Positions 24,653 through 61,449 of a stretch of DNA of 64,000 bases are shown one piece after another. The stretch comes from a virus: the IMG/VR virus record IMGVR_UViG_3300044844_000928, one strand, 5' to 3'. A model generated the notes under the pieces. That model saw only the letters and a list, made by a program, of their open reading frames with translations, had not been told where the DNA came from and made no database searches. The position numbers and the translations under genes were made by a program. How positions within the stretch are numbered: the first letter of the stretch is position 1; every line of letters starts with the position of its first letter.

Positions 24653-24720
24653 TTTTTAAGCGCTTAACCTCAATTCACGCCCGACTAGGCTATTATACGC
24701 TTCTAGGAGCAAAAAGTAAA
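24653..24720 (-). repeat. Dispersed element copy 1: early promoter plus invariant 39-nt downstream sequence
   Basis: 45-bp core 24653-24697 identical to 43355-43399 and 61382-61426; minus strand reads TTTACT-N17-TATAAT-AGCCTAGTCGGGCGTGAATTGAGGTTAAGCGCTTAAAAA. Confidence 0.92.
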
Positions 24721-24742
24721 GTTTTATTTTACAATTAAAGCG

Positions 24743-24749
24743 CTAAATA
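24743..24749 (+). promoter_or_regulatory. Putative late promoter
   Basis: CTAAATA upstream of gp25. Confidence 0.6.
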
Positions 24750-24770
24750 ATATATCTTCACTTTAACTTA

Positions 24771-25829
24771 ATGCCGAATATGTCAACGATAAAACGCTAC
24801 AAGGATATCGACCTCAACTTCATGCCTAACCCTTCAGCATTTGAACGCATTTCAGGTAAAGGATATCTTAATTACAACTCTGGTTCGCCAATTGTGGTTG
24901 GGTTTGATACACAATTCACCCGTTACCTTTCTGTAGACGATAATCTTTATGTATCTAATTCATTCATAGGTAAAATTAAATCTATAGAATCTGACTCATT
25001 TTTAACGCTATATGAAAACGCTTTACTTTCGATAATGACGGATTTGTATGATGAAACATACTTACAGGTGACAGAGTCAACAGTATCCAACGGCACATTT
25101 ACATTCAATAAGGATGGAACAGAATACTTTTTTAATGTGTCTAACCTATCAAACAATCAGATAGAGTCAAATTTGATTCGTTTTGATGTTGATACAAATT
25201 ACCCTGATACAGAAAATTATCCTGTCAAATATAGAATTTTAGGGTTAGATTCTTTTGACGTTGTTGGCGAATATCCTAGAAATTCTGATAATACATTTAA
25301 CATTTCGGATTACCTTAGCGGGACTTTAGCATTTTATGAAAAGGCTCAAGATGTTTACACGGCATATGTTCAAATAAGAACTGTGACCGATAACGTTCTT
25401 GAAAACATAGAACATGCGATATTCGTATTGGAACTTGCTGATTCAACTAATCATATTACAGTGTCAGATGCTAATTTTACATTTTCGCATCCTGGTGATA
25501 TTACCTTTAAGATTGATGCAAACGCGGTTAAAACTTCTATTGAGCATCTTGTCAGAACAATGAATTATGAACGCCCGTTTAATTCAAATCTAGGCTCGCA
25601 AATCACCAGCCTTTTATTTGAATCTTCTTCTCCGGTTTACGCTGAAATTATTAAACGTACAATTAGAGAGGTGGTATCAGCATATGAGCCTAGAGCTACC
25701 TTAACAAATGTTGATGTTGTTATTAGTCCAGAATCTAATAAAAATTTGGCAAATATTAGTATTGAATTTTACATAACAGAATCTAATTTGCCATACACGC
25801 TTAACCTAACACTGGAACGTACACGATAA
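24771..25829 (+). CDS. 25: Baseplate wedge gp25 with ~200-aa internal insertion
   Basis: N-terminal RYKDIDLNF; C-terminal GDI....D..AVK.S...L..T...ERPF....G....LLFE...YEPR...L.L.LERTR; 352 aa versus ~130 typical. Confidence 0.85.
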   Translation: MPNMSTIKRYKDIDLNFMPNPSAFERISGKGYLNYNSGSPIVVGFDTQFTRYLSVDDNLYVSNSFIGKIKSIESDSFLTLYENALLSIMTDLYDETYLQVTESTVSNGTFTFNKDGTEYFFNVSNLSNNQIESNLIRFDVDTNYPDTENYPVKYRILGLDSFDVVGEYPRNSDNTFNISDYLSGTLAFYEKAQDVYTAYVQIRTVTDNVLENIEHAIFVLELADSTNHITVSDANFTFSHPGDITFKIDANAVKTSIEHLVRTMNYERPFNSNLGSQITSLLFESSSPVYAEIIKRTIREVVSAYEPRATLTNVDVVISPESNKNLANISIEFYITESNLPYTLNLTLERTR

Positions 25830-27643
25830 TGAATAAACAAATAAATGTTTCTGAACTTGACTTTGATAACATAAAAAATAATCTAAAAAACTTTCTAAAG
25901 GGTCAATCAACTTTATCTGATTATGATTTTGAGGGTTCTGGTTTATCTATCTTAGTTGATTTGCTTGCATACAATACGCATTACAATTCACTGTATACCA
26001 ATATGGCTCTTAACGAATCTTTTTTAGATACAGCATCTAAAAGGGAAAGTGTTGTTTCTTTGGCAACTATGCTAGGTTACTTACCGCGCTCGGCAAAATG
26101 CGCAACTGCTACTGTCGATTTGATTATCTCTAACCCTACGTTAACGCCGGCTTCAGCTATTTTGCCGAAATATTCTGCGTTCTCATGTACGGCTAATGGA
26201 AAATCTTACTTTTTCTATAACACAGAAGATATCCCTGTTGTGCCTGTTAATGGGATATATAGAGCAAATGCTATAGAGATTAAAGAAGGGATACCAAATT
26301 ATGAAACGTACACCGTTTCTGACACAACCAAATATATTATCTCAAACAAAAATGTTGATGTTGATACAGTAAAGGTAATTGTAAAAGAATCAAGTTCTTC
26401 TACCGCTGTAACTACATACACATTAGCAAGCGATATTCTTAATGTGAAATCAACAGATACCGTGTTTTTTCTTAAAGAAATTTACGACAATAATTTTGAA
26501 GTGTCATTCGGAAACGACAAATTAGGTAAAGCGCTAACAAACGGAAATATTGTAACAATTGAATACTTTATAACCAATAGAGCAGACGCTAACGATATTC
26601 GCCAGTTTGCGTTAACCAGAAGCATTGTTGAATTAGGTGGTTCTTCTTTTGTTATTACGGTATTACCTTCTTCTGGTGGCGATGAACCAGAAACAGCATC
26701 TGAAATTAGATTTAATGCCCCAAAACTATTAAATTCACATAATAGGGCGGTGACTGCTAATGATTACCTTTCTGTCATAAAGGCTAATTATACAAACATA
26801 GATACAATTAATGTGTGGGGCGGTGAGGATAACATTCCACCGGTTTACGGTAAAGTGTTTATGTGCATCAAACCAAAATATTCTAGCAAACTATCTGTAT
26901 CTGAAAAAGAATTAATTAAAATAGATTTGCTTAAAAACAGAAATGTGATAGGAGTAACGCCTGAATTTGTAGATCCTAATTATATCAATCTACAGGTTAA
27001 TATTGTTGCTCATTATGATAAGGCGGCTACGACTAGAACCAAAAATGATTTAATATCTGCTATTGATGTTGTTGTTAGAGATTATAATGAAACAAGCCTT
27101 AAAAAGTTTGATTCAGTTTTCAGGTATTCTAAATTTTTAAAATTGATTGATGGTGTTGATTCAGCTATACTTTCAAACATCACTAATATTTTGATTCGTA
27201 GACCAGTTAACATTTACTTCAATACAAAAACACCATATACAATTGATTTGCATAATCCTATATATGCGGCTGGTGTGCCTGAGGAAGCGGTTACTACGAC
27301 TGGGTTCTACGTGACAGGCGATGCGTCAACCATATTTTACATGGAAGACGATGGACTCGGGAACCTTATAAAATATACATTAGATACAGAGTATAATAAA
27401 ATTTATTCTGTTGGAACATTTGGAACTGTAAATTATGAAGAAGGCACTATTAATTTGACTGAAGTTTCAATTTCAAGACTGGCAAATACAAAATTTGAAT
27501 TTTTTATTAAGCCGGCTTCTAACGATATTATTTCAAGACAACATAACATAGTACAATTAGACACAAATAATATCATTATTGATGCTGTTGTTGATTCAAC
27601 TGCATTTGGTGGTTCTAGTTATGTATTTACAAAGAGTAGATAA
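25829..27643 (+). CDS. 6: Baseplate wedge gp6
   Basis: SELDFD.IK.NLK.FL..Q....DYDFEGSGL..L.DLLAYNTHYN, RAVT..DY, WGGEDN.PP.YGKVF. Confidence 0.95.
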   Translation: MNKQINVSELDFDNIKNNLKNFLKGQSTLSDYDFEGSGLSILVDLLAYNTHYNSLYTNMALNESFLDTASKRESVVSLATMLGYLPRSAKCATATVDLIISNPTLTPASAILPKYSAFSCTANGKSYFFYNTEDIPVVPVNGIYRANAIEIKEGIPNYETYTVSDTTKYIISNKNVDVDTVKVIVKESSSSTAVTTYTLASDILNVKSTDTVFFLKEIYDNNFEVSFGNDKLGKALTNGNIVTIEYFITNRADANDIRQFALTRSIVELGGSSFVITVLPSSGGDEPETASEIRFNAPKLLNSHNRAVTANDYLSVIKANYTNIDTINVWGGEDNIPPVYGKVFMCIKPKYSSKLSVSEKELIKIDLLKNRNVIGVTPEFVDPNYINLQVNIVAHYDKAATTRTKNDLISAIDVVVRDYNETSLKKFDSVFRYSKFLKLIDGVDSAILSNITNILIRRPVNIYFNTKTPYTIDLHNPIYAAGVPEEAVTTTGFYVTGDASTIFYMEDDGLGNLIKYTLDTEYNKIYSVGTFGTVNYEEGTINLTEVSISRLANTKFEFFIKPASNDIISRQHNIVQLDTNNIIIDAVVDSTAFGGSSYVFTKSR

Positions 27644-27645
27644 TT

Positions 27646-29799
27646 ATGGATAAAACTAAACTATCCTCGATAATATCGTCACAGTTTCCTGAATTTACCA
27701 TACCAAAATATGGCAATTTCATAAAATTTTTAGAACTGTATTATTCGTATATTGAACAAACAGATTTTAGGGCGTTTGGTAACTTAAAATCTTTAGATGA
27801 CAATTTAGATGTATTTGTGGAACATATCAAATCTGAATTAGGTATTTCAGACATACCATCTGTACATGGTACAGATGAAAGGTTACTTTTAAAGCATATT
27901 AAAGATTTTTACTCAGCTAAAGGCTCAGAAGAATCATTGAGAATTTTATTTAGACATCTGTTCGGTAAAGAGATTGATATATTTTACCCAAAAGATTTTA
28001 TTCTGAAAGCATCTGATGGCAGATGGAAACAAGAAATATCCGTTCTTGTTTCAGTTAGTTCTAATGACAAAGGGATATCAACTTCTTGGTTAAACGATAA
28101 AACATATCAAAATCAAACCGGTTCTATTTCTACATCTAAAAGTAGTACGATTGTAACAGGTTATAATACACAATTTACACATTTGCAAAAAGGTTCTATT
28201 TTACATAAAACTGATACAAATATTATTATTGGAACAATATATTCTATTCAATCTGACACAATTTTAACGTTAGTTGATCATGCTTATATTGATGCCATTT
28301 CTGCTATACAATTTAAAACTTCTGTTGCAGACGCATATTCGTTAACTGGCAAATATGTTAATATACAATCAACATATAAAACAATTGAAGTTTATGTTAG
28401 CAGAGTTAGAGCGGTAAATAACGGTCAATATGAAATCTTTATGGAAGGATTTTATCATAATGATTTGGAGCTATATAATGAAATTTTGTTTGAAGATGTA
28501 TTATGTGTTATACAGCCATCTGTTGCTAAACTTAGGGTTGAAAAGAAAGGCGCTAAATTCAAACTTGGTCAGATATTTGATTTAGACGCAGGTGGTAGCG
28601 GGGCAAAATGTAAAATTGTCGACATAGATGCAGACGGCGGTATCAAATCTATACAATTAATTTTTTTCGGGTCTGGGTATGAACAAAACTCTTATTTCAA
28701 TTTAGTATCTGGATTCAATAAATCTGAAACGTTTGACCCATCAAAATTATATGATTACACAACTGGGTTCGTTGAAGACGGGGTAATAACATATCAAGAT
28801 TATTTTGTTGAGTATGCACCTATAGATTATTCCGGTGAAGTTTTACGGGCATTTCATTCAGATTACACTGTTCCTCCTGGATATTATGTAACAGATGATA
28901 ATACCGCTATTATTGAAATTGAAATGGGAATTATCCGCAAATATCCTGGATCGTTTACAGCCAGCAACGGGTTTGCGTCTGATGCATTTGTTTTACAGGA
29001 TAATTATTATTATCAAATTTATTCTTATGCGATTAAAGTGTCAGAAGATATTCAGTTGTATAAAGATATTGTTAAACATGTGGTGAACCCAGCCGGCTAT
29101 TTAATGTTTGGTGAATACACCTTAAATAATGATATTGATATGTCAATATCTCTTGAGCAGATAGGCTATTTCTTTAAAAAATTATTCAAAGAAATTTTAC
29201 TTTTTACTGATGATCATTCTACATTAATTGAAAAGCCATTTGCTGATAGTGTTGGTAAAAGTGATTCTAGAACGAAATTATTTGGTAAGGCATTAGCAGA
29301 TTCCATAACAAATGCTGATAGTAGCACAAAATTGTTTAACAAAGGGTTAACCGATTATGTGACGCAATCTGAAAATAGAACGAAATTATTTGGTAAGGCA
29401 TTAGCAGATTCTATAACTGCGCCAGATTCTAGAACGAAATTATTTGGTAAGGCATTAGCAGATTCTATAACTGCGCCAGATTCTAGAACGAAATTATTTG
29501 GTAAGGCATTAGCAGATTCCATAACAAATGCTGATAGTAGCACAAAATTGTTTAACAAAGGGTTATCGGAAACGATTACTTATACTGAAACAAAAACGAC
29601 TGCGTTCTCTAAACAATTAGCAGATGCAATTACGCCATCTCAAACTTTCTCTAAATTATTAAGTAAAAGATTCAGTGATTCTACTTATGGCACTACAGAT
29701 ACTGGATCTTTAATTTTAACTAAAATAGCGCTTTCATATTTTCTTGAAGATTATAATTCTCAAGCATATGCAGAAGGCACATATACAACAAACTTTTAA
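27646..29799 (+). CDS. 7: Baseplate wedge gp7-like protein
   Basis: FI.FL..YY..., IKDFY.AKG.EES..ILFR.LFG......YP...ILKASDG.W, LQDNYYYQ.YSY.IK.....YK..VK..V.PAG..MFG. Confidence 0.75.
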   Translation: MDKTKLSSIISSQFPEFTIPKYGNFIKFLELYYSYIEQTDFRAFGNLKSLDDNLDVFVEHIKSELGISDIPSVHGTDERLLLKHIKDFYSAKGSEESLRILFRHLFGKEIDIFYPKDFILKASDGRWKQEISVLVSVSSNDKGISTSWLNDKTYQNQTGSISTSKSSTIVTGYNTQFTHLQKGSILHKTDTNIIIGTIYSIQSDTILTLVDHAYIDAISAIQFKTSVADAYSLTGKYVNIQSTYKTIEVYVSRVRAVNNGQYEIFMEGFYHNDLELYNEILFEDVLCVIQPSVAKLRVEKKGAKFKLGQIFDLDAGGSGAKCKIVDIDADGGIKSIQLIFFGSGYEQNSYFNLVSGFNKSETFDPSKLYDYTTGFVEDGVITYQDYFVEYAPIDYSGEVLRAFHSDYTVPPGYYVTDDNTAIIEIEMGIIRKYPGSFTASNGFASDAFVLQDNYYYQIYSYAIKVSEDIQLYKDIVKHVVNPAGYLMFGEYTLNNDIDMSISLEQIGYFFKKLFKEILLFTDDHSTLIEKPFADSVGKSDSRTKLFGKALADSITNADSSTKLFNKGLTDYVTQSENRTKLFGKALADSITAPDSRTKLFGKALADSITAPDSRTKLFGKALADSITNADSSTKLFNKGLSETITYTETKTTAFSKQLADAITPSQTFSKLLSKRFSDSTYGTTDTGSLILTKIALSYFLEDYNSQAYAEGTYTTNF
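29263..29565 (+). repeat. 54-bp (18-aa) coding tandem repeats in the gp7-like C-terminus
   Basis: SRTKLFGKALADSITAPD/NAD units with near-identical DNA. Confidence 0.9.
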
Positions 29800-29808
29800 G
29801 GAATAAAA

Positions 29809-30255
29809 ATGATTTTAAATTCACAATCTGGAGTTACCGGCGTTGTTTCTATTGTAAAAACTAATAGCAATAATGAAGTTACAGACAAAGTTGTATCAAA
29901 CTTAGTTGTTACAACCGGCAAAACTATTATTGCCACATTGTTATCTGGTGGTACTGGTGCTATGACTCATATGGCTGTTGGTTCTGGGGCAGTTCCTGCC
30001 GCATCCGGTGATGTTGCATTAGGAGCACAAATTTCTACTCGTAAAGCATTAACATCAACAACTGCTTCTACAAATACAGTTACTTATGTTGCTACATTTG
30101 CGCCAACTGAAAGTACAGGAACATTGACTGAAGCAGGTTTATTCAATAGTGCAACGGGCGTTTTAACTAATATGTTGGCTAGAACTGTATTCCCTACTAT
30201 CACAAAAGAAGCTGGCGATACCATCACAATTACATGGGTAATCACAATTTCTTAA
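29809..30255 (+). CDS. Virion structural protein (paralog A)
   Basis: NLVV..GK..I, HMAVGSG, D.AL, EAGLFN....G.MLAR.VFP.I.K.....ITW.I; paralog of the next ORF. Confidence 0.7.
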   Translation: MILNSQSGVTGVVSIVKTNSNNEVTDKVVSNLVVTTGKTIIATLLSGGTGAMTHMAVGSGAVPAASGDVALGAQISTRKALTSTTASTNTVTYVATFAPTESTGTLTEAGLFNSATGVLTNMLARTVFPTITKEAGDTITITWVITIS

Positions 30256-30267
30256 TAAGGAAAATTT

Positions 30268-30717
30268 ATGTTTGGTAAAGAAATGTTAAAAATCACCGGT
30301 AAATTGACCATTGAAAAATTCGATTTGAATGGTATATTATTAGAAACTATTGAAATACCAAACATGATTGTTGATGCCGGTAAAAATCATATTTTGTTAA
30401 GGCTATTATCAGGGACGACAGAAACTCCCATGTCACACATGGGAGTTGGCAGTGGGGATTCGCGCGTATTAGTTAATGATACCGCGTTAACAACACCAAT
30501 CGGAACAAGAGTTAATTTATTAACACCAACAGTAAATGGCAACACCATAAGTTATGTTGGGACATTTTTAGCTGGAAATGCAACTGGTTCTATTAGTGAA
30601 GCCGGTATTTTTAATGCGCTAACCGGTGGTAAGATGCTATGCAAAACTGTATTTCCAACAATAACAAAAATAGCATCACAATCCATAATTATTTCATGGG
30701 TAATCACACTTTCTTAG
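30268..30717 (+). CDS. Virion structural protein (paralog B)
   Basis: Same motif set as 29809-30255. Confidence 0.7.
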   Translation: MFGKEMLKITGKLTIEKFDLNGILLETIEIPNMIVDAGKNHILLRLLSGTTETPMSHMGVGSGDSRVLVNDTALTTPIGTRVNLLTPTVNGNTISYVGTFLAGNATGSISEAGIFNALTGGKMLCKTVFPTITKIASQSIIISWVITLS

Positions 30718-30724
30718 GATTTTT

Positions 30725-32344
30725 ATGAGTTCAATTATTAGCCAAGGGTTTCATATCGCATTAGCTGATTCGACTTTTCGTGACATCAAAAGTAACACTG
30801 TAAAATTTTATTACTATCTTGGTAAAAGTTTACCCTATAATGTTACAGATGAACCGGAAACCCCTACAAAAACTTTCGTTTATGAACAACAAACTAAACG
30901 AGATGCAGTTTTTGTCAAGCGCGTATCTGTGAACGATATTTCTTTCGTTATTCCAAGAATCAATTGGGTTAGCGGTACAGTTTATGATGATTATGATGAT
31001 TTATATTCAACCACAAACTTGGCTAATTCTGGAGCTTCTTCACTTGAATCTGCTAAGTTTTATGTTGTGACATCATCTAATAAAGTCTATAAATGTTTAA
31101 ACAACAATAATGGTCAACCATCTACTGTTCAACCGTCTAATACAGACGTATTGCCGTTTAAAGAAGTTGACGGGTATATTTGGAAATTTATGTATGCAAT
31201 ACCTATTATTTTCCAGCGTAAATTTATGACACCGACGTTTGTTCCAGTGTCAAACTCTATGTCAACGAGATACTATAACAACGGCGGTATTGATAATGTT
31301 GTAATTTTAGATGGTGGATCTGGTTATCACCCTACAACCACAACAATTACAACTATTTCTCAAACAGGTGTTGGTGCACATATAACTCCTGATATTGATA
31401 ATATAACAGGACAAATAACTGGCGTGATTATTGACAATCACGGAGAAGGGTATCTTGATGTCCAATATCAAGTCACAGATGGTAATGCAACTCCAGGAAC
31501 GGGCGCTAAATTAACATCATCAACAGATTACGGTTCAGTAACAACGCAACAATCTAATGTTGAATTATCGGCTATAAATGGGTCAATTGAACGAATTAAG
31601 GTAACATTTGGTGGATACGATTATAATGTATTAACAACACAAATTATAATCAATGGTGATGGACAAGGATGTACTGCAATTCCTGTATTTAATTTATCTA
31701 ATCAAATTCAAAGTATCACTATTACAAATCCAGGATATGATTATACTTATGCAACTGTAACTATAACTGATTCTACAGGACATAATGCAACAGCTCGTGC
31801 TATTATTTCTCCATATGGTGGACATGGAAAAAATGCAATAAAAGAATTATTTGGAAATCGCATTATGTTTTCAACATCTATTCATAATGATAATATTAAC
31901 GGTTTTGTTATTGATAATGATTATAGACAGTTTGGATTAATTAGAAATCCAAACGGCGCCGATTCTTTACCATATACTGGAATTATAGGTTCTAGCTGTT
32001 ATACTGTAACAACAACTAGCACATTTAATTTGATAGATTATCCAAACGATACAATATTAAATTTAACATCAGGTTCTTATGTTGGTAAACAATTTATCGT
32101 TGTTGCAGCTAAGACAACGACAACGGGGGGCACGCTATTGCTACAACCTAAAGATAATGTGCCATTATCTGTTTCCAATTTTTTGTCTGTCTCAACAAAT
32201 CCTAGTATTGTGTTTAGGGTTGACAGTGTCACTGCCCCATCTGTGGACATGTTTAGCGGTGATATGTTGTATATAGATAACAGATACGCATTTTATCAAT
32301 CAAATGAACAAACTATTTCTTTGCAATCAGTAATTAAATTTTGA
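30725..32344 (+). CDS. 8: Baseplate wedge gp8
   Basis: VIPR.NW.SGT.YD.Y, FYV.T....VYKCL.N, DGY.WK.MY.I, ISP.GGHG.NA..EL, SG..LYIDNR. Confidence 0.88.
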   Translation: MSSIISQGFHIALADSTFRDIKSNTVKFYYYLGKSLPYNVTDEPETPTKTFVYEQQTKRDAVFVKRVSVNDISFVIPRINWVSGTVYDDYDDLYSTTNLANSGASSLESAKFYVVTSSNKVYKCLNNNNGQPSTVQPSNTDVLPFKEVDGYIWKFMYAIPIIFQRKFMTPTFVPVSNSMSTRYYNNGGIDNVVILDGGSGYHPTTTTITTISQTGVGAHITPDIDNITGQITGVIIDNHGEGYLDVQYQVTDGNATPGTGAKLTSSTDYGSVTTQQSNVELSAINGSIERIKVTFGGYDYNVLTTQIIINGDGQGCTAIPVFNLSNQIQSITITNPGYDYTYATVTITDSTGHNATARAIISPYGGHGKNAIKELFGNRIMFSTSIHNDNINGFVIDNDYRQFGLIRNPNGADSLPYTGIIGSSCYTVTTTSTFNLIDYPNDTILNLTSGSYVGKQFIVVAAKTTTTGGTLLLQPKDNVPLSVSNFLSVSTNPSIVFRVDSVTAPSVDMFSGDMLYIDNRYAFYQSNEQTISLQSVIKF

Positions 32345-32354
32345 AGAAATTAGG

Positions 32355-32361: not shown

Positions 32362-32399
32362 ATTGTATCGTTAACCAATAACAATAAGAGAACTAGAAT

Positions 32400-43321: not shown

Positions 43322-43359
43322 AAGCCGGTATGACTTAACAGTTTACCGGCTTTATTTTT
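43322..43359 (+). terminator. Rho-independent terminator
   Basis: AAGCCGGTA...TACCGGCTT followed by a T-rich run. Confidence 0.75.
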
Positions 43360-43422
43360 AAGCGCTTAACCTCAATTCACGCCCGACTAGGCTATTATAC
43401 GTGTTTAGCAACATAAAGTAAA
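43355..43422 (-). repeat. Dispersed element copy 2
   Basis: Identical 45-bp core 43355-43399; -35 AGTAAA at 43417-43422, 17-bp spacer. Confidence 0.92.
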
Positions 43423-43436
43423 GTTGTATTTCAACA

Positions 43437-43443
43437 CTAAATA
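43437..43443 (+). promoter_or_regulatory. Putative late promoter
   Basis: CTAAATA upstream of the tail fibre gene. Confidence 0.6.
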
Positions 43444-43501: not shown

Positions 43502-45238
43502 ATGTCAACGCTTACCCTCAGAACGGCGAAAGGGTCTCCACTAACAAACGCAGAGGTGGATGCCAATTTTACCAATTTACTTGTTGCTTTAGGTGGAACA
43601 AACGCAACACCTTATACTTTGCCGACTCCAACCGGTACTGGTTCTCCTGTATTAAATAACAACCCAACTTTTTCTGGTAATGTTTTGATTGGTTCTGGTG
43701 CAACAACCACTAGATTCCCTAATACAATTTCAATTGTCAGTAACATTACAACAAATCAACATAATGAACCTCACAGAATTGGTTTGCTTGCTGAGGGTGT
43801 TGGTTCGACTACAACATCAACTGCTACTGGTTCTAATGGTGCTAATACAATTTCTCTTAGCGCGGTAAATGCAGGCGTTATAGCAGGGCAAGGTGTTAGT
43901 GGTACTGGTATCGCAACAAATGCAACTGTTACTGGTATCAGCGGAACGACAATAACATTATCAGCTAATAATACCGGTGCTGTTTCTGGGACGGTTACAT
44001 TTGCCAATTATGGTATTGGTCTTTATGGTTCTGGTTATACAAACGGCGGCGCAAGATCTGGCGGTGTAGTTGGCGAAGGTCACGTTTCTGCTAGTTTAGA
44101 TGCTGGTGCTGCTATCGGTGTTCGCGGTTACGCTAACGATGCTCACTCAGGCGGCATGAATATTGGTCTGTATGGTGATGCAACTGGTGGTGCATCAAAC
44201 TACTCATTGTATTTGAATAGGGGTGACATTTATTCTGCAGGTGTTCAAAATTGGACTCTGAATGGTAACTTGACTTTAACGGGTGCTTATACGGTAACGA
44301 TTCCAACTTTAAGTTTGGGAAATGCTTTACCTATTGCAAGTGGTGGTACAGGGTCAACAAGTGCCTCAGCTGCTTTAACTGCATTAGGTGCGTATGCTGC
44401 AACTAATCCATCAGGTTACACGACAAATGTCGGCACTGTTACTTCAGTTGCTATAAGTGTTCCAAGTTTTTTAAGCGCTGGGTCTGCTATTACAACAAGC
44501 GGTACTATTGCAATATCGTTATCTGGAACAGCATTACCAGTTGCTAATGGCGGTACAGGGTCAACAAGTGCCTCAGCAGCATTGACTGCATTGGGTGCTT
44601 ACGCTTCAACAAATCCATCTGGATATACATCAAACACTGGCACAGTAACTAGCGTTGGTGGTACATCTCCAATCAGTTCTAGTGGTGGAACAGCTCCTAC
44701 TATTAGTATATCTCAATCGTCATCGTCTGCAAATGGTTATTTGAGTTCAACTGATTGGAATGCCTTTAGCGGTAAACAAGCTCCTATTGGAACAATATCT
44801 GGATTAGCAAAAGGAAATGGTGCTAATGCCTTAACAGCTGCAACTGCCGGCACAGATTATGTTGCTCCAGGAACTGCTACAACTTTTACAAAACCACAAA
44901 CTCCTTCTACTTCAGCAGAAACTGCACCATCTACTAATGCTATTACATGGGATTTGACTACTAATCAGATTTTCAGAATCAATCTGAATGCTAATATTAC
45001 TACATTCAATTTGACTGGAACATTAAGTAGTTTGGTTGGTAATCAATATGAAGCAATTGTACGGTATAACGGTGGGAGTACAATATCATGGAATGCTAAT
45101 ATGAAATGGACAGCAGCTACTGCTCCTACATTAACAGGAACAAGTGGCAAGATTGATGTATTTACTTTTGTCGTAGCAAGTACAGACGGAACCAATTATT
45201 ATTTGGTTAATACTGGCATTAAATTGAACGTGGGTTAA
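43502..45238 (+). CDS. Tail fibre protein
   Basis: N-terminal LTLR..KGSPLT.AEVD.NF.NL anchor; Gly/Thr/Ser-rich; duplicated LP(I/V)A.GGTGSTSASAALTALGAY segment; C-terminal W....KW.....PTLT...GK.D...F. Confidence 0.75.
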   Translation: MSTLTLRTAKGSPLTNAEVDANFTNLLVALGGTNATPYTLPTPTGTGSPVLNNNPTFSGNVLIGSGATTTRFPNTISIVSNITTNQHNEPHRIGLLAEGVGSTTTSTATGSNGANTISLSAVNAGVIAGQGVSGTGIATNATVTGISGTTITLSANNTGAVSGTVTFANYGIGLYGSGYTNGGARSGGVVGEGHVSASLDAGAAIGVRGYANDAHSGGMNIGLYGDATGGASNYSLYLNRGDIYSAGVQNWTLNGNLTLTGAYTVTIPTLSLGNALPIASGGTGSTSASAALTALGAYAATNPSGYTTNVGTVTSVAISVPSFLSAGSAITTSGTIAISLSGTALPVANGGTGSTSASAALTALGAYASTNPSGYTSNTGTVTSVGGTSPISSSGGTAPTISISQSSSSANGYLSSTDWNAFSGKQAPIGTISGLAKGNGANALTAATAGTDYVAPGTATTFTKPQTPSTSAETAPSTNAITWDLTTNQIFRINLNANITTFNLTGTLSSLVGNQYEAIVRYNGGSTISWNANMKWTAATAPTLTGTSGKIDVFTFVVASTDGTNYYLVNTGIKLNVG

Positions 45239-53907: not shown

Positions 53908-53911
53908 AAAC

Positions 53912-54481: not shown

Positions 54482-54491
54482 TAGTGAATTT

Positions 54492-54499
54492 TATAAATA
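54492..54499 (+). promoter_or_regulatory. Late promoter
   Basis: TATAAATA. Confidence 0.6.
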
Positions 54500-54515
54500 A
54501 TAATGAGGAATAATA

Positions 54516-54710: not shown

Positions 54711-54711
54711 A

Positions 54712-55170
54712 ATGGCCAATACTCAGGCAATGGCAACTAGTTTTAAACAAGATATTCTTAATGGTATTCATGCTTTTGGGACAACTGTTGTTCGTGCAGC
54801 AACTACAAAGGATACATTTAAGGCGGCGTTATACTTAACATCTGCAACAGTAAATGCATCTACAACTGCATACTCATCAACTGGTGAAGTAACAGGAACA
54901 GGATATACCGCTGGTGGGGTTGCGGTTACAACTGCAACTGCTCCAACAACTTCAGGAACAACAGCATTTTTTACACCATCAGCATCTATTGTATTTTCTG
55001 GAGTTACCTTGAGCACCGCATTTGATGCTGTTCTTATCTATAACGATACGGCTTCAGGTAAAAACGCGGTTTCTGTGCATACCTTTGGCGCTCAAACAGT
55101 TACAGCTGGAACGTTCACTTTGACTATGCCGACTAATGACGCTTCTAATGCGTTAATCAGAATTGCATAA
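54712..55170 (+). CDS. Conserved virion structural protein
   Basis: MANTQAM.TSFK...L.G.H.F...DTFKAALY...TT.YS..GEV.GTGYTAGG...LIYN.T...GTFTL..P...ALIRIA. Confidence 0.7.
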   Translation: MANTQAMATSFKQDILNGIHAFGTTVVRAATTKDTFKAALYLTSATVNASTTAYSSTGEVTGTGYTAGGVAVTTATAPTTSGTTAFFTPSASIVFSGVTLSTAFDAVLIYNDTASGKNAVSVHTFGAQTVTAGTFTLTMPTNDASNALIRIA

Positions 55171-55272
55171 TAAATAATTGTAAATCTTATATTATTATTT
55201 GTGTATATAATACGATAATTGATATGATATAAGTGCTAGTCTAACTAATTTGCAAAGGATGCCTACAAGTTA

Positions 55273-57933
55273 ATGTCTATTATATCTAACAATTCATCGT
55301 ATTATCTTAGTGATTTTATAGATGCAAGTTACATGGAATCTGGCTTCATTACGATGGGGTCAGGTTTTGTTGCGTCTGTAAATCATATAGCTTACATACC
55401 GCTAATTGGTGTATCCGCAACCGTTAATATAGGTACAGTAGGATATTCAACTTCAAATACCGTATCTATTTCTGGTAATACTGCTACATCAGCAGTAGGA
55501 ACAGAACCAACCACAAATTCAATAGCTACTTTATCTGTCTTTGCTACAGGTAGCGTAAACTCATTTGTTTCTAATGTTACAGTCAGTATAACTGGAAATT
55601 CTGCCGCTGTATCGGTAGGCTTAGTTGCGCAATCTTCTCAAATTGCAAGTACAGGTAACACATTAACATCAAATACTGGTACAGTAACAAATTCTAAAAA
55701 TATTAGTGTTGCAAATGTCGCAGCATCTATATTATTGAATTCGTTGACACCAACTTCAACTTACTCCACGTCTGGTGTATTTGTTGGTTCTGTTGTTGGG
55801 GATTTAACAAAATTAACCTCTATTGGGTTAACCGGTAATACAGCATCAACTGCTATCGGGTCTGAACCCAATAACACCATAATAGGTTTAACCGGTAATA
55901 CAGCATCAACTGTTATAGGAATAGTTGGTAATAGTATCAGTGCAGGGTTAACCGAAAACTTTGGGTTTATATCTTTATCTAATGTATATACATCTAGTGA
56001 GTTAAATTTAACTGGCACTGTAGCATCAACTGCTATCGGGTCTGAACCTAACAATACTGTTGTTGGTTTAACCGGTACTGTAGCATCGGTATCACAAAAC
56101 AATTTAATTGCAAGTCAATTTGGTGGGTATAGTGTTTCAAATGTAACAGGCGTCAGTTATATTGGAAACATAAACGCAAATGTATCTATTGGTATACAAG
56201 GAAATGAAACTTCTCTTGTAACTGGGTCAGTATCAACTAACCTTTTGTTTGATGTTTATGGAAACTCTATAGTTGGTTATGTAGGCGACATATCTAAATT
56301 TAATTCTGTAACATTAAACGGTAATACAGCATCAACTGCTATTGGTTCCGAGCCTAACAATACTGTTGTTGGTTTAACCGGTACTGTGGCATCAAATGTT
56401 ACAGGAATAGTTGGTAATAACATCAGTATAGGGTTAAACGGAAATACATCTTTATTTACAGTAAATAATTTAGTCGCAAGTCAATTAGCAGGGGTTACAC
56501 TTGCCGGTAATGTTGCTGTAACTACAAATGGAATAACAAGTCCAGGACAGATAGCACAAATATCTGGAAACCAAGTATCATCTAGCGTTGATACTTTCCA
56601 AATTGTCAACTCTAAAAATTTAACCTATGTTTCTATCAGTTCAAACATAGGTAATGTTGATAAAACAAATACATCGTCAATTTCCGGTAACTCTGCTGTT
56701 ATATCTGTCGGAAATGAGCCTAATAATACTGTTGTTGGTTTAACAAATGTTTTATCAAATTTAACAATAGGAAATATAGGAAAGGCAAATAGTGTTGATG
56801 CAATAGGAAACACAGCGGTAACTTCTATTGGGACGCAAAATAAGTCTATAACGGTACAACTATCTAATGTTGTTGGGTTTGCTCAAATCGGGACAGGCGC
56901 AATATCTGAAAGACTTGCTGGAAATACAGCAAGTACATACATCAATAATGTAACTAAATCTAGTTCTGTATCGTTAACCGGCGCGGTGGCAAATGGATTT
57001 GCTGGATACGAATCAAAAAATAATACTGTAGGATTAAGCGGCGTTGGTTCTGTAGCTTTTGTAAAAGATTTAATTGGAACAATAAATGTTTCTACGACAG
57101 GAAATAATTTAACATCGCAATTAAATTCAATACAGAATGTATACACTGACAAATCGATACAAGGAAATTTAGCATCAATATCTCTTGGTGCAGAACCAAC
57201 AAATGTTAATGTTACATTAAGCGGCGTTGTTTTAAACGCATCAATAGGTAATGTAAATGTAAATAAAACAAATACTGTTGATGGTAATTCTACGTCTGTA
57301 TTTGTTGGTACCACAAATAATTATGTTACAGTAGGATTAAGCGGTAATTCTACTTCTGTATTTGTTGGTTCTGAAACTCCAAATTATGTTTCACCAGTAG
57401 TAGGTGAACATATATCAACTGAAACAGGTGTCACAGGAAGTTCTATTACACTCACTCTTAGTGGAGTAGAAGCGACAACTGTAGCTGGTAGAGTTTACCT
57501 TAACACTTTGAAAGGTAACTCTGCGGAAGTTTATGCTGGAACGACAAACTCTAACGTCATTGTCAATTTACGCGGTAATGTTTCGTTTGGAAGAGTTAAT
57601 ACTGTATCAAAATCATCTTATGTTGGTGTACATGGTGTTGAAGCTGTTGGCGAATTTAACATTGACCCAGAAAATAAAGCAGCAAAATTAACCCGTGTCA
57701 GTGCTATTTGCTCAGTTGGAAATGTTACGGCTAAAACTAACACCAAATTAATTGGAAATATTGCTACTGTCACCTTAAATACAGGCGCGGCTGAATCTGT
57801 TATCGGTGTTGTTAGGTGTAGAGTTAAATGTAGGTTCAATACAAAATACTCAATTAAACCTAAGTTTGGGGTTCAACTAAACAAACAATCTAAATTTGTC
57901 ACAGTGTATAGCATCAAGACAAAAGTTTTTTAA
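55273..57933 (+). CDS. Repetitive beta-rich virion protein
   Basis: ~19-aa periodic GLTGN.AST.IG repeats over 886 aa, with DNA-level copies of ACAGCATCAACTGCTAT.GG. Confidence 0.7.
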   Translation: MSIISNNSSYYLSDFIDASYMESGFITMGSGFVASVNHIAYIPLIGVSATVNIGTVGYSTSNTVSISGNTATSAVGTEPTTNSIATLSVFATGSVNSFVSNVTVSITGNSAAVSVGLVAQSSQIASTGNTLTSNTGTVTNSKNISVANVAASILLNSLTPTSTYSTSGVFVGSVVGDLTKLTSIGLTGNTASTAIGSEPNNTIIGLTGNTASTVIGIVGNSISAGLTENFGFISLSNVYTSSELNLTGTVASTAIGSEPNNTVVGLTGTVASVSQNNLIASQFGGYSVSNVTGVSYIGNINANVSIGIQGNETSLVTGSVSTNLLFDVYGNSIVGYVGDISKFNSVTLNGNTASTAIGSEPNNTVVGLTGTVASNVTGIVGNNISIGLNGNTSLFTVNNLVASQLAGVTLAGNVAVTTNGITSPGQIAQISGNQVSSSVDTFQIVNSKNLTYVSISSNIGNVDKTNTSSISGNSAVISVGNEPNNTVVGLTNVLSNLTIGNIGKANSVDAIGNTAVTSIGTQNKSITVQLSNVVGFAQIGTGAISERLAGNTASTYINNVTKSSSVSLTGAVANGFAGYESKNNTVGLSGVGSVAFVKDLIGTINVSTTGNNLTSQLNSIQNVYTDKSIQGNLASISLGAEPTNVNVTLSGVVLNASIGNVNVNKTNTVDGNSTSVFVGTTNNYVTVGLSGNSTSVFVGSETPNYVSPVVGEHISTETGVTGSSITLTLSGVEATTVAGRVYLNTLKGNSAEVYAGTTNSNVIVNLRGNVSFGRVNTVSKSSYVGVHGVEAVGEFNIDPENKAAKLTRVSAICSVGNVTAKTNTKLIGNIATVTLNTGAAESVIGVVRCRVKCRFNTKYSIKPKFGVQLNKQSKFVTVYSIKTKVF

Positions 57934-57952
57934 CAATTAAAAAGGTAAACCA

Positions 57953-58258
57953 ATGTACAATTTTGTTGAAGGAGATACAGCATCAATACTTGAAGTGAAA
58001 TGTATAGATGCGTTTACTTCATTGCCAATTAATATGACAGGTTCTACGGCAAAACTCAAATGGGTAAATAAAGCCAAAGTAACACTTTTAAAAAATATGA
58101 CTATTACTGATGCAACCAACGGGGTTGCTCAGTACAATTTTGGAGTAGGTGAATTAGAAGCGCCTACTATGTCGTTTGATGTTGTGATAACAGACTCAAA
58201 CAATAAAACTTTGACATGTAGAGAAATTGTACAGGTTAGTGTCAGAAAACGCTTATAG
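57953..58258 (+). CDS. BppU-like (baseplate upper protein N-terminal type) protein
   Basis: GDT...L......P.N.TG.T......ITDA.NG...Y pattern. Confidence 0.55.
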   Translation: MYNFVEGDTASILEVKCIDAFTSLPINMTGSTAKLKWVNKAKVTLLKNMTITDATNGVAQYNFGVGELEAPTMSFDVVITDSNNKTLTCREIVQVSVRKRL

Positions 58259-58267
58259 GAGGTGAAA

Positions 58268-58975
58268 ATGATTACGCCGTTAATGATGGCAAAATTCAGT
58301 GAATTAGCTTACACTGATGACTACAAATTTCCAGATTGGAATACCATATTCTTGGATAAAAACGGCTCACAAGCTTATTTCCTTTTTAACATTGATACAA
58401 TTATTGTTGTTTGTAGAGGAACTCAACCTACTAAACTTGAAGATATTATCGCGGATATTAGATTCAGATTAGTTCCTAGCAGTTCCGGTATAGGTAAAGT
58501 ACATCGCGGCTTTAAAGCATCTGTAGATAATATTTGGGATGACTTATCTAAATTATTCCTCAAATACCCTAACAGAAAAGTGTATCTTACAGGACATTCG
58601 TTAGGCGCGGCTATGGCTACTCTTATTGCTGGTCGTTGCCACAGATTTCCTGATATGCCAAATCCAGTCCTATATACCTTTGGTTCACCAAGAGTTGGGA
58701 ATTATACCTATATCAATTTCTTAAACACATTAAATATTGAGCACCATCGTTGGGTTAATAATGCTGATATTGTACCTAGAAATCCAATATTCCCATACTA
58801 TCATCATGGTGAATTAAATTATTTTGATCATAACGGTGACTTAACTGATATGACTGTCTTTCAAATGGTTAAAGACAAAATCAAAGGAACTATTTTGGGA
58901 TTAAAGAAAGGAAAGGTCAATTTTTTCGTTAATCATGAAATGAAAAACTACATTAAAAACTTGGAGAAATTATGA
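58268..58975 (+). CDS. Lipase class 3 (alpha/beta hydrolase)
   Basis: VV.RGT, VHRGF, LTGHSLGAA nucleophile elbow, YTFGSPRVG, D.VP, terminal H; AGGAGG RBS before ATG 58268. Confidence 0.9.
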   Translation: MITPLMMAKFSELAYTDDYKFPDWNTIFLDKNGSQAYFLFNIDTIIVVCRGTQPTKLEDIIADIRFRLVPSSSGIGKVHRGFKASVDNIWDDLSKLFLKYPNRKVYLTGHSLGAAMATLIAGRCHRFPDMPNPVLYTFGSPRVGNYTYINFLNTLNIEHHRWVNNADIVPRNPIFPYYHHGELNYFDHNGDLTDMTVFQMVKDKIKGTILGLKKGKVNFFVNHEMKNYIKNLEKL

Positions 58976-59163
58976 AATTAGTATTATTGGCGGCGCTTAC
59001 CCTTATGTTAACAGGATGTGCGGCTTTGGTTGAAACGGAAACTTTAATCAGCGCGGCGGTAACGGATTACTGTAAAGCACCAGAGTTTGCTAGAATTACT
59101 TTGCGTGAAAAAGTAGCAAAAACATTAGAACCAAACTCAATAGAAATTCACTGTAACAAATAA
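58972..59163 (+). CDS. Small lipoprotein (possible o-spanin-like)
   Basis: Signal peptide with LTGC lipobox. Confidence 0.6.
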   Translation: MKLVLLAALTLMLTGCAALVETETLISAAVTDYCKAPEFARITLREKVAKTLEPNSIEIHCNK

Positions 59164-59184
59164 ATCATATTGAATTGTTGTGCT

Positions 59185-59220
59185 AACCCTGTCAATCTTA
59201 ACTGGTTGACAGGGTTTTTT
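59185..59220 (+). terminator. Rho-independent terminator
   Basis: AACCCTGTCAA...TTGACAGGGTT plus T-run. Confidence 0.85.
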
Positions 59221-59226
59221 ATTTCA

Positions 59227-59233
59227 CTAAATA
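59227..59233 (+). promoter_or_regulatory. Putative late promoter
   Basis: CTAAATA upstream of gp13. Confidence 0.6.
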
Positions 59234-59267
59234 TAATATACCAAAGCCAACTTCAAATAGGTAAAAT

Positions 59268-59996
59268 ATGATTCGTTCAAGAGAAGAATTAAAACAGTAT
59301 GCATTAAGAGCATTAGGTGCTCCTGTTATTGAAGTGAATGTGGCAGATGAGCAATTAGAAGATAGACTTGATGACGCCATAGCATATTATAACATGTATC
59401 ATTATGATGGTGTGGAAAGGATGTATCTTAAGCATCTTATCACTAGCACTAATATGACAAACAAATATATTCAGTTGCCTGACGACATACGCGGTATAAC
59501 TAGAGTATTTTCTTTAAATGCAAATTCGTCTAACTCAATTTTGAATTATGAAACGCAGTTCCGTATGGATATGATTGCGAATTTACACAATTCAAATATT
59601 ACAGATTACCAAATGACAATGAACCATCTACAAATGTTAGATACCTTATTGTCTGGGCAAAATCAGTTGAGATTCAATAAAAATAACGGTAAACTATACA
59701 TCGATATGAATTGGGATAAATTATCACCATTTCATTACATTATTGTTGATTGTTATCAGGCTATAGATCCTGAACTAGAAACAAAAATGTATGATGACGT
59801 TTGGTTAAAGGCTTATGTGGTTGCCAAATTCAAAATGCAATGGGGTCAAAACCTAAGCAAATACAACGGCGTTTCTCTTCCAGGTGGGGTTACTATTGAC
59901 GGACAATCAATGTATGATACAGCCGTTTCTGAGATTTCCGCATTAGAACAACAAGCGGCTAATGAATCTGGCTTATTAGATATGTTTATTGGTTAA
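59268..59996 (+). CDS. 13: Neck protein gp13
   Basis: SREEL..Y.LR.LGAPVIEVNV.DEQ.EDR.D.A..Y...YHYDG; WL..Y.....K.QWG.NL.K..G..LPGG.T..G. Confidence 0.95.
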   Translation: MIRSREELKQYALRALGAPVIEVNVADEQLEDRLDDAIAYYNMYHYDGVERMYLKHLITSTNMTNKYIQLPDDIRGITRVFSLNANSSNSILNYETQFRMDMIANLHNSNITDYQMTMNHLQMLDTLLSGQNQLRFNKNNGKLYIDMNWDKLSPFHYIIVDCYQAIDPELETKMYDDVWLKAYVVAKFKMQWGQNLSKYNGVSLPGGVTIDGQSMYDTAVSEISALEQQAANESGLLDMFIG

Positions 59997-60006
59997 GGAT
60001 TAAATT

Positions 60007-60663
60007 ATGCCACGCAACCAATATTTTAATTTTGGTAAATCTACATCAGAACAAAACCTTTATGAAAGTATAATCATAGAAACAATCAATATTTATGGAC
60101 AGGAAATGTTTTATATTCCTAGAACATTGGTTGGTGTTGATGATATTTTAGGGGAAGATACCTTATCTCAATTTAACAATTCATACCCTATAGTGACTTA
60201 TTTTGAGAACATAGACTCGTTCGAAGGACAGGGCGCGTTTATGTCTAAATTTGGTTTAACTATGGAGCAGTCTGCTACGCTTACCGTAGCAAGAAAAGAA
60301 TGGTTAGATTTAGTTGGGGCATACGGGACAACTATCCTACCTGAAAGACCAGCTGAAGGAGATTTGCTGTATTTTCCTTTAACGGGCGGTTTGTTTGAAA
60401 TTAAATTTGTTGCACATCAAGATCCATTTTATCAAATTGGCAGACTTTATGTGTATAAGCTTACCGTTGAATTATTCCAGTATTCTTCAGAAAAAATTAA
60501 TACAGGTGAAGTTGATATTGATGTGTTTGAAACCTTAAAATCATTTGATATTGATATCAATACAGATACTGACGATCAGGATTCATTTGGTGATAATAGC
60601 AAATTCCAAACTAAGGCTTCTACAATTAAATTCGACGAAACTAATATTTTTGGGGAATTTTAA
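60007..60663 (+). CDS. 14: Neck protein gp14
   Basis: EQ.L.E..I.E.I..YG....Y.PR, F.G.G.F.SKFG, RP.EGDL.YFP....LFEI.FV....PFYQ.G....Y.L..ELF.YS.E. Confidence 0.95.
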   Translation: MPRNQYFNFGKSTSEQNLYESIIIETINIYGQEMFYIPRTLVGVDDILGEDTLSQFNNSYPIVTYFENIDSFEGQGAFMSKFGLTMEQSATLTVARKEWLDLVGAYGTTILPERPAEGDLLYFPLTGGLFEIKFVAHQDPFYQIGRLYVYKLTVELFQYSSEKINTGEVDIDVFETLKSFDIDINTDTDDQDSFGDNSKFQTKASTIKFDETNIFGEF

Positions 60664-61376
60664 TGACACCACATTACGCCGGTATAATCAAAAAGACTAT
60701 TACAGTTTTCGGTAGCTTGTTTTCTCAATTTCAAATTGAAAGGCTAAATACTGATGGTACAGTCGGACAAACTATTAACATACCTATAGCATATTCTAGC
60801 AAACAGAAATGGCTTACTAGAATTGAACAAGACCCAAATCTCACGAATCATACGTTAACTACGATGCCTAGATTTGGGTTTGAAATAACTAATTATTCGT
60901 ACGATTCAAGTAGAAAGGTTAATTCGATGCAAAAGATAGCATCTAGTGCTACGCCTACTGAAGCGAATACACAGTTTTCACCTGTTCCATATAATATTGA
61001 TATTAACCTTTATCTTCAGACTAAAAATGTTGAAGACGGGTTAATGGTGATGGAACAAATACTGCCAATGTTTACTCCGCATTATACAGTTACGATTGAT
61101 GCTGTTCCAGATATGAATATCATCAATGATGTGCCTTTAGTTTTAAACGGGGTGTCAGTAGAAGATGATTATGAATCAGATTTTAGAACAAGACGATCTA
61201 TAATTCACACATTTTCTTTTACGCTTAAAGTTAATTTATTTGGTGAAATAACAAGATCTAAATTGATTAGACATGTAACGGCTAATCTGCCTGATGTAAA
61301 TGGAAACTATCAAACGGCGGCTACAGTTCCAGGAACATTAACTCAAGACCAATGGACATTTAACTTTGGGGTGTAA
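60663..61376 (+). CDS. 15: Tail sheath stabiliser/terminator gp15
   Basis: FG.LF....I.R, IPIAY..KQK...R, PR..FE.....YD..RK, PVPYN, EQILP.F.P, DDYE.DF..RR. Confidence 0.95.
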   Translation: MTPHYAGIIKKTITVFGSLFSQFQIERLNTDGTVGQTINIPIAYSSKQKWLTRIEQDPNLTNHTLTTMPRFGFEITNYSYDSSRKVNSMQKIASSATPTEANTQFSPVPYNIDINLYLQTKNVEDGLMVMEQILPMFTPHYTVTIDAVPDMNIINDVPLVLNGVSVEDDYESDFRTRRSIIHTFSFTLKVNLFGEITRSKLIRHVTANLPDVNGNYQTAATVPGTLTQDQWTFNFGV

Positions 61377-61381
61377 TACTA

Positions 61382-61449
61382 TTTTTAAGCGCTTAACCTC
61401 AATTCACGCCCGACTAGGCTATTATAGGCTCATTGGTCTAAAAAGTAAA
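61382..61449 (-). repeat. Dispersed element copy 3
   Basis: Identical 45-bp core 61382-61426; -35 AGTAAA at 61444-61449, 17-bp spacer. Confidence 0.92.

Follow-up and report, generated by a model that had tools for sequence, protein, structure and literature searches.

The window (the whole 64,000-nucleotide stretch of viral DNA that was analysed) contains three copies of a cassette in which a near-consensus sigma70 promoter runs into a start region of fixed length that is rich in G and poor in C. The cassette is under purifying selection, occupies many sites and is mostly gene-less. The explanation that we favour, at a little under an even chance, is that they are replication origins, dispersed and primed by RNA (R-loop origins), that would work like oriE, oriF and oriG of T4.

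The three cassettes and their surroundings

A match search of the window placed exact copies of the predicted 45-bp core at 24653, 43355 and 61382 and gave no further match with up to three mismatches (none expected from 100 shuffles). All three copies have the same layout on the minus strand: an A-rich UP element, TTTACT, a 17-bp spacer, TATAAT and a 39-nt tail, with the promoter spacing that the original prediction had described. The identity across the three copies covers exactly 45 bp, is lost in the spacer and returns at the −35/UP region. Copy 1 (24653–24732) has its UP element at approximately 24721–24732, the −35 box at 24715–24720, the spacer at 24698–24714, the −10 box at 24692–24697 and the tail at 24653–24691; it is flanked by gp5 and the gp25/gp6 block and is directed towards gp5. 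Copy 2 (43355–43434; −35 box 43417–43422, −10 box 43394–43399, tail 43355–43393) lies immediately 5′ of a tail-fibre-like gene in divergent orientation. Copy 3 (61382–61461; −35 box 61444–61449, −10 box 61421–61426, tail 61382–61420) lies between gp15 and gp18 and, as had been foreseen, reads into the antisense strand of gp15. The first five bases of the tail probably belong to the discriminator and lie outside the transcript, because T4 PuvsY and P34i start 7 nt past TATAAT; a conserved 18-nt core, at 24674–24691 on the minus strand in copy 1, would comprise the discriminator and the first ∼12 transcribed nucleotides, with a predicted start at 24686 or 24685. Plus-strand TTTACT…TATAAT promoters number eight (762–10189) rather than the seven first counted, and none of the eight carries the tail.

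Each cassette is back-to-back with a plus-strand CTAAATA late-promoter motif, again as reported originally (24743–24749, 43437–43443 and, for gp18, 61487–61493). The neighbouring plus-strand genes encode gp5, the baseplate hub/tail lysozyme (21020–23836; phrog_430, E = 3e-53), a gp25-domain baseplate wedge protein (24771–25829; PF04965), the tail-fibre-like protein (43502–45238; weak PHROG tail fibre matches, E ∼ 2e-5), the gp15 tail sheath stabiliser (60663–61376) and the gp18 tail sheath (61538–64000, continuing beyond the window edge). Downstream of copy 1, on the minus strand, are a 125-aa orphan ORF (24229–24606), which has a late-like CTAAATT ahead of it at 24638–24644 and a structure prediction too poor to use (pLDDT 39), and a 96-aa ORF (23901–24191); the latter has its own minus-strand CTAAATA motif at 24230–24236 and is probably a late gene that is not expressed from the cassette. 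Copy 2 had been thought to run into a terminator hairpin. The hairpin (plus strand, 43322–43352, or 43322–43359 with its U-tract; −15.8 kcal/mol) has a U-tract that reaches into the end of the copy 2 tail, but this tract is on the plus strand only, so the hairpin is a probable late-transcript terminator and not one for the cassette RNA. Around copies 1 and 2, and within 2.4 kb below copy 3, a terminator scan gave no hit on the minus strand.

Conservation and distribution in relatives

Between the window species and a sister species, TATAAT and the 15 nt behind it (in most copies 18) show no difference, whereas fourfold synonymous sites in the same pair are only 35–42% identical; this supports selection on what follows the −10 box. 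Strict conservation is limited to the −10 box and about 18 nt; the contrast drawn originally between differing spacers and an invariant 39-nt tail holds within this genome, but the distal half of the tail varies in relatives. The prediction had also preferred selection to recent duplication, and the core is indeed kept against saturated synonymous sites, although the identity within a genome is partly concerted evolution. Strain G004 has the same spacer and a near-identical tail at its gp15 and gp3 sites, an identity that appears gene conversion-like, and in L018 the gp3-side upstream flank is joined to the gp15-side downstream flank (an inversion-type join, but possibly an assembly chimera). 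These observations speak for a mobile regulatory cassette of PeSL type, whose copies would stay alike chiefly through recombination and gene conversion and would offer shared homology at which modules could be shuffled or inverted. So do a cassette in a sister species at a site (2738) that carries a plain promoter in the window, and the terminators that stand upstream of the cassette at several sites in relatives. The PeSLs of RB49/phi1, PST/T4 and nt-1/KVP40 (PMC2839356, PMC4122927) likewise have a repeated sigma70 promoter, an AT-rich upstream region and an often adjacent terminator; recombination between their copies would be a further, possible parallel. We nevertheless regard this account as unlikely: conversion alone would not make the core outlast synonymous-site saturation or leave it recognisable at 57–58% protein identity. 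PeSLs, moreover, lie mostly in hyperplastic regions (PMC2839356), whereas the cassettes are far fewer, show no preference for hyperplastic ORFan regions and in many cases stand antisense and gene-less within the core virion block. The conserved part of the cassette also follows the start site, and a stem-loop is absent from copies 1 and 3, is on the plus strand only at copy 2 and is present at some sites in relatives.

The element was first described in the virion cluster but is not confined to it. Relatives carry the same promoter-plus-tail cassette at about ten site classes, early regions included, and it is maintained in three phage groups, down to 57–58% protein identity. The sites include those beside gp5/gp25, gp15/gp18, gp13/gp14, gp17, the primase gene, the tail-fibre gene and the gp3/UvsW block, the primase-side site being common to all three groups. 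In relatives the cassettes are antisense within late blocks and co-directional in early regions; since most copies are co-directional with early genes, antisense silencing of late operons, one of the functions originally proposed, is not a general role. A role in transcription-driven DNA entry was rejected since the copies point in both directions, as was a replichore reading, since polarity tracks the early and late blocks and GC skew tracks the gene strand. Nine cassette positions are taken for this genome, three in the window and six putative ones checked only via relatives' contigs; their spacing is more even than chance would give (p ∼ 0.003).

At the gp3/UvsW, gp17 and primase sites, as well as in L005, an ordinary second promoter comes 45–67 nt past the −10 box; in the distant phage (57–58% protein identity) it lies a little farther downstream. 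The tail would be an ordinary 5′ UTR, the finding named at the outset as contrary to a special element, at only two of the ∼10 site classes in the two closer species (L030/L025 and L076), where the cassette leads directly into an ORF; at most early sites the second promoter intervenes. Tandem arrays of two or three cassettes occur at some sites, and in the distant phage some units are closed by their own terminator, which would give RNAs of ∼110 nt.

Conservation peaks at and just after the predicted start, at a fixed distance from the −10 box, and relative to ordinary promoters both the last four spacer bases (3.0 versus 1.7 GC of 4) and the discriminator (2.8 versus 1.8 of 6) are GC-richer. 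This pattern would suit a special promoter subclass with no replication role. In such a subclass the GC-rich −10 flanks and the start block would set how transcription initiates, escapes or pauses, or would serve as the binding site of a factor; copies in late blocks would yield anti-late RNA or disturb the back-to-back late promoters, and copies in early regions would boost early operons. The late motifs behind all three window copies and the ORFs driven at two site classes agree with it, and a comparable start-block subclass exists in T4, which repeats its own oriF start block at two further MotA-box sites. We consider such a subclass a genuine candidate but a somewhat improbable one; it leaves unexplained the second promoter after most early copies, the tandem arrays with a terminator-closed unit and the even spacing.

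Beyond the clade, neither blastn against INPHARED nor a metagenome pattern scan matched the cassette. Matches of 14 nt outside the clade came without a promoter and were dismissed as chance, as were L028 and L413 as cassette carriers. A cassette profile gave no full-length match in two complete genomes of distant freshwater T4-like phages and no hit in T4, RB49 or KVP40; Aeh1 and Melnitz gave 11–14.5 bits with partial model coverage only and no full copy. Contigs of relatives from lake metatranscriptomes extend across copy 3, but give neither strand nor RNA ends. The host of the window's species is probably a Methylococcaceae methanotroph, because one of its strains carries pmoC, and at least one of the T4-like phages bearing the cassette probably infects methane-eating bacteria. 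Fragments of the distant phage showed no pmoC, a result that is uninformative about its host.

RNA-level and operator readings

Within the cassette, none of the palindrome, the GAGGT motif, the RNA fold or the CRISPR-repeat likeness is conserved in relatives. The perfect 12-bp palindrome TTAAGCGCTTAA is present in all three window copies at an operator-like position, where a dimeric protein might repress these promoters; the palindrome is broken in most relatives, including the orthologous gp15 site of near-identical strains, and the idea is largely refuted. Roles as a micropeptide gene or Shine–Dalgarno element were rejected for want of a conserved start codon, and likenesses to boxA, CsrA, LexA, Fur, DnaA and 23S-end motifs are not kept across variants.

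A multi-copy trans-acting small RNA or decoy, also proposed originally, would include an RNA anti-CRISPR (Racr) mimicking the host type I-C repeat. What does not vary is the RNA 5′ end, as in an sRNA seed; type I-C arrays occur in ∼30 of 151 genomes of the host family, the 11-nt repeat handle agrees with the window variant at 7 of 11 positions, and there are the ∼110-nt terminator-closed units of the distant phage. Even so, we judge this reading very unlikely. RNAalifold gave no consensus structure (0 pairs), there was no Rfam match, the window copies have no terminator of their own and a defined 3′ end (terminator) exists only at some distant-phage copies. No conserved fold with covariation was found: a tail hairpin (10–15/29–34) was rejected because its apparent covariation in one distant variant is broken in others and RNAalifold predicts no pairs, there are no conserved pairs, and a 4-bp mini-stem would draw on bases that precede the predicted start. 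Nor is the core enriched on either strand of host genomes (8 hits versus 11 for the control), on which ground host mimicry or a host target was also rejected. Solitary Racr repeat units (PMC10651486) resemble the cassette in having a phage promoter and then a short non-coding sequence partly like the 3′ end of the host-family I-C repeat. Unlike them, the cassette is dispersed genome-wide and matches only part of the 3′ half of the repeat (host repeat in L262; handle 4–7 of 11, and only 4–6 in relatives). It has no repeat stem-loop, and the stem required by Cas5 is missing; the stem-loop is essential in RacrIF1 (PMC10651486). No acr neighbours were seen.

The origin reading and its meaning

An R-loop origin appears to fit best of the three functions proposed originally. 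In T4 there are at least five origins; early synthesis begins mostly in late regions, and oriE works from an early promoter (PMC3016281). Like the cassette, T4 oriF (ori(uvsY)), oriG (ori(34)) and oriE (PMC3016281; NC_000866) comprise a promoter and downstream DNA, need no gene and are several per genome. In promoter type the cassette is oriE-like, since it has an early sigma70 TTTACT-17-TATAAT and no MotA box, whereas oriF and oriG are of the MotA middle type. Both systems are antisense to late genes at gene 5 and at a tail-fibre gene: copy 1, accompanied by two small ORFs, is antisense at the boundary between gp5 and gp6, and the T4 annotation describes the oriE primer RNA as complementary to the gene 5 transcript (NC_000866); copy 2 precedes the tail-fibre gene, and oriG is antisense in gene 34. 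Other cassette sites precede the UvsW block (T4 oriF is at uvsY) and, in three phage groups, primase (oriA is near dam/61). Some of this synteny may be chance, because gene order differs from that of T4 and there are ∼10 sites. A likeness of 6–7 nt between the oriF block and the cassette start site, CTA(A)G(T/A)C, is suggestive only. Placement further speaks for origins, most of the cassettes being either gene-less or redundant with an ordinary promoter next to them, as do the even spacing of the nine positions and the fact that T4, too, repeats its oriF start block at other sites.

The start region has a marked strand bias, with 8–15 G versus 2–5 C per 31 nt among variants, and G-rich RNA-strand sequence of this kind favours R-loops (PMC6442632). 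In 20 of the 21 variants, which are related and not independent, an RNA:DNA hybrid is favoured over the DNA duplex (mean −2.9 kcal/mol, compared with +1.6 kcal/mol for ordinary promoters); the variant of this genome has a modest advantage, in the top 21% of 30-mers. T4-type R-loop origins have an A+T-rich unwinding element downstream of the promoter. The first 28 transcribed nucleotides are only 46% AT, and the following 60 nt average 74% AT over variants versus a background of 65%; in the window the values are 78, 70 and 67%, copy 3 (67%) being no more AT-rich than background. RNase H, UvsW, gp41, gp43, gp45, gp59, gp32 and primase were found in the clade (the window plus loci of the same clade), matching T4 in replisome, RNase H, gp59 and UvsW; the window genes for gp33, the gp59 helicase loader and the gp32 SSB (5186–7017, plus strand) are part of this T4-type machinery, which an R-loop origin could use.

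On the origin model, host RNA polymerase would fire the cassette immediately after infection, and the untranslated G-rich RNA would remain on its template as an R-loop reaching into the AT-rich DNA behind. Phage RNase H would trim this RNA to a primer, gp59/gp41 would load and leading-strand synthesis would begin in the direction of transcription, until UvsW and the switch to gp55 turned the cassette off late. The late-block copies face backwards and would therefore cause no early expression of virion genes, which they may also damp; in early regions the second promoter downstream would carry the mRNA work.

Several points count against this model. T4 R-loop formation is sequence-independent and T4 origins have no common motif (PMC3016281), so the base-by-base invariance of the core is left unexplained. 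The oriF tail is C/A-rich, not G-rich, and two site classes lead straight into an ORF. The cassette further departs from T4 origins in having a sigma70 −35 box in place of the MotA box, one conserved motif in all copies, a G-rich RNA strand (C/A-rich in T4), tandem arrays and ∼9 copies. No RepEA/RepEB homologue was found among the clade loci examined and no iterons were seen, a further difference from the T4 origins.

Experimentally defined origins come only from T4 itself, where they have no common motif and are not predictable, and the cassette bears on how distant T4-like phages without MotA begin replication. It is conceivable, although on balance doubtful, that the origins of a methanotroph-associated T4-like lineage have all become one standard R-loop cassette that is sequence-defined, G-rich and fired by sigma70. 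Such cassettes would be placed about every 18 kb, be tandem-amplified and move between sites through recombination, and their orientation against late genes would allow clamps on the lagging strand to activate late promoters. If so, a group whose model member is said to have no recognisable origin motif would have one. A promoter subclass alone would be a modest addition. The 75-bp cassette needs only sigma70 polymerase and is testable on a plasmid without culturing phage or host. The paper on pmoC-carrying freshwater phages mentions neither promoters nor origins (PMC7674155); if the cassette is an origin, it would provide a handle on the replication of these phages.

The cassette and its phage

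Exact matches to the 45-bp core number three (24653, 43355 and 61382), with none expected by chance, and bear out the original prediction that the three sites are identical. On the minus strand all three copies have an A-rich UP element followed, as predicted, by TTTACT, a 17-bp spacer that differs between copies, TATAAT and a common 39-nt tail; each stands back-to-back with a plus-strand CTAAATA, again as predicted. Eight promoters of the same −35/−10 type, not the seven originally counted, lie on the plus strand between 762 and 10189, and all indeed lack the tail. The hairpin adjoining copy 2 (43355) had been taken as a terminator into which that copy runs; its U-tract, however, belongs to the plus strand, which means that the late transcript ends there and the cassette RNA does not. 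The cassette is real and conserved, a function is probable, and it is apparently undescribed: a literature search, with thin coverage of subscription journals, found no paper describing it.

The window covers the early/late junction and virion block (gp33, gp59, gp32, gp5, gp25, gp6, gp15 and gp18) of a T4-like phage; gp15 of the closest isolates is only ∼43% identical to its own. The phage very probably carries pmoC and infects a gammaproteobacterial methanotroph (cf. PMC7674155), because the IMG/VR contig L002 carries the cassette together with PmoC (PF04896, E = 7e-123; up to 92% identity with Methylococcaceae proteins) and is 95–99% identical to contig L001, which also encodes a gp15 100% identical to that of the window. 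TAGCCTAGTCG, with which the cassette tail begins, recurs in the tRNA-operon structured leader ahead of pmoC at L002:2715–2726 (minus), L016:8558–8569 (plus) and in L029, with one change in L001; the match is marginal by chance.

The window also has a class 3 lipase gene within the virion block (58262–58975), a 247-aa protein with an N-terminal HTH_3 domain amid minus-strand structural genes (16053–16796, minus) and coding tandem repeats in structural or acidic proteins (29209–29633, 12078–12366 and 2899–3047, with units of 54, 54 and 15 nt). A second, larger early-promoter family (7650–7740 and 9044–9120, and many sites in contigs L193, L254 and L035) has a semi-conserved tail with AGATCTTAATGAAGTT at its start and a GGAG ribosome site at its end, resembling the promoter–stem-loop (PeSL) cassettes of other T4-like phages. 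Nine nucleotides of the core, CGGGCGTGA, recur directly upstream of the gp33 promoter −35 (5146–5154); they are probably there by chance and are not kept in L007. Among related phages, the terminase large-subunit gene of L004 (1244–4011) lies outside the gp15–gp18 interval, on the strand opposite to the adjacent early genes, and is apparently split by an inserted 270-aa ORF; two others carry Avd and reverse transcriptase (a diversity-generating retroelement) beside gp13 (L384:486–2165 and L386:5829–7974).

Distribution and conservation in related phages

Pattern scans found ∼40 homologous copies in ∼10 site classes: the three window sites, one following gp3 and preceding the UvsW block, one divergent from gp17, one before primase and several in the early region. 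Copies are antisense in late blocks and co-directional in early regions, where an ordinary promoter usually follows 45–67 nt past the cassette −10 box. That the tail might be an ordinary early 5′ UTR, as the original prediction had allowed, holds at most in part, the cassette directly preceding an ORF at only two site classes. The family is also present in a sister species (gp15 75%, primase 77%); there the gp17 site holds two cassettes in tandem, and another cassette takes the place of a plain promoter of the window. A third, distant phage (gp15 58%, primase 57%) has recognizable homologues: three in antisense tandem in the gp13/gp14 interval, two before primase and further copies close to RNase H and to a helicase, some units being closed by a same-strand terminator ∼75–80 nt past the −10 box. 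No full copy was found in the more distant phages examined.

TATAAT and the following 15 nt, or 18 nt for the majority of copies, show no change between the window and sister species apart from position 4, while fourfold synonymous sites are only 35–42% identical; TATAAT and the start of the tail are thus under purifying selection. In all three phage groups ten tail columns are invariant or nearly so, and there are hardly any indels. A tuned promoter subclass with an anti-late RNA would account for where this conservation falls, but leaves the redundant second promoters and the tandem units with terminators unexplained, and we consider it possible but rather doubtful. The distal half of the tail varies, and the palindrome and GAGGT are missing from many copies; a palindromic operator, the faintest of the prospects, is refuted by this loss of the palindrome in relatives. 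The cassette variants share no common RNA fold. I-C arrays are present in the host family, as would suit an RNA anti-CRISPR (Racr), but the stem-loop and whole-repeat tests both failed, making this and the decoy RNA proposed earlier very improbable.

There are signs that copies exchange sequence. Strain G004 has one spacer and tail variant common to its gp15 and gp3 sites, and contigs L018 and L037, over their whole length, join the flanks of the inverted gp15- and gp3-site cassettes, as expected from inversion of the gp18–gp3 block between them; this may be a real inversion or a chimera. Core selection together with homogenization thus accounts for the perfect 39-nt identity within the window, which had been ascribed to selection and not to recent duplication. 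A PeSL-like cassette accounts for conversion and is nonetheless unlikely, as it explains neither the deep conservation nor the placement in core genes. A short microhomology deletion has removed the −10 box from one copy (L005:1720–1790, minus), which retains a complete tail. In L009 and L317 (near 1461–2330) a 240-aa ORF (MTSTSIY start), a probable homing endonuclease, is inserted antisense at the primase-side cassette, between it and the second promoter, with the tail end replaced.

Comparison with T4 origins

Early replication in T4 is primed by promoter transcripts at five or more origins, most of which lie in late regions. Both a promoter and an AT-rich element are needed at oriF and oriG, the promoter at oriE is an early one, and these origins are turned off by UvsW (PMC3016281). 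In RefSeq the oriE primer is complementary to the transcript of gene 5 and that of oriG is opposite to gene 34, a loose positional match with copies 1 (24653) and 2; the sites beside UvsW and primase echo oriF and oriA. The block that follows the oriF TATAAT is found again at 11885 and 75988 (T4 loci L425 and L427), behind MotA-like boxes on the plus strand, opposite to oriF, so a small promoter subclass, one member of which is an origin, is dispersed in T4. Its likeness to the cassette is only 6–7 nt at the start site, and we claim no homology. By its architecture the cassette, as a putative origin, may work like this class.

We tentatively read the cassettes as dispersed R-loop replication origins, at a little short of even confidence. 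Strand asymmetry persists among the variants (8–15 G versus 2–5 C per 31 nt), 20 of 21 have an RNA:DNA hybrid stabler than the duplex, and the DNA behind the G-skewed 31 nt averages 74% AT; R-loops are favoured where promoter-proximal RNA is rich in G and G-skewed (PMC6442632). Genes for RNase H, UvsW, gp41, gp43, gp45 and primase are present in the clade. In T4, R-loops form independently of sequence and the tail of oriF is C/A-rich, whereas the cassette RNA strand is G-rich; this is the weak point of the reading, and something more is required to account for the invariant core. RNA polymerase start-site contacts could account for part of it; alternatively, some factor could bind there. Some cassettes are preceded by a terminator, an inverted repeat rich in AT and, on the RNA-like strand, a tract of G runs (L007:1480–1740, with IHF-like boxes; L319:5640–5870; L014:5370–5630; L026 upstream of 4473), possibly a principal origin.

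As R-loop origins, the cassettes would be transcribed into an RNA that forms an R-loop and primes early replication, as at T4 origins. The backward orientation in late blocks would mean that such early transcription does not express the virion genes. More speculatively, and not for the gp18–gp3 block, lagging-strand clamps would, with that orientation, face the direction needed for T4-type late activation, which requires a particular clamp orientation (PMC2988020).
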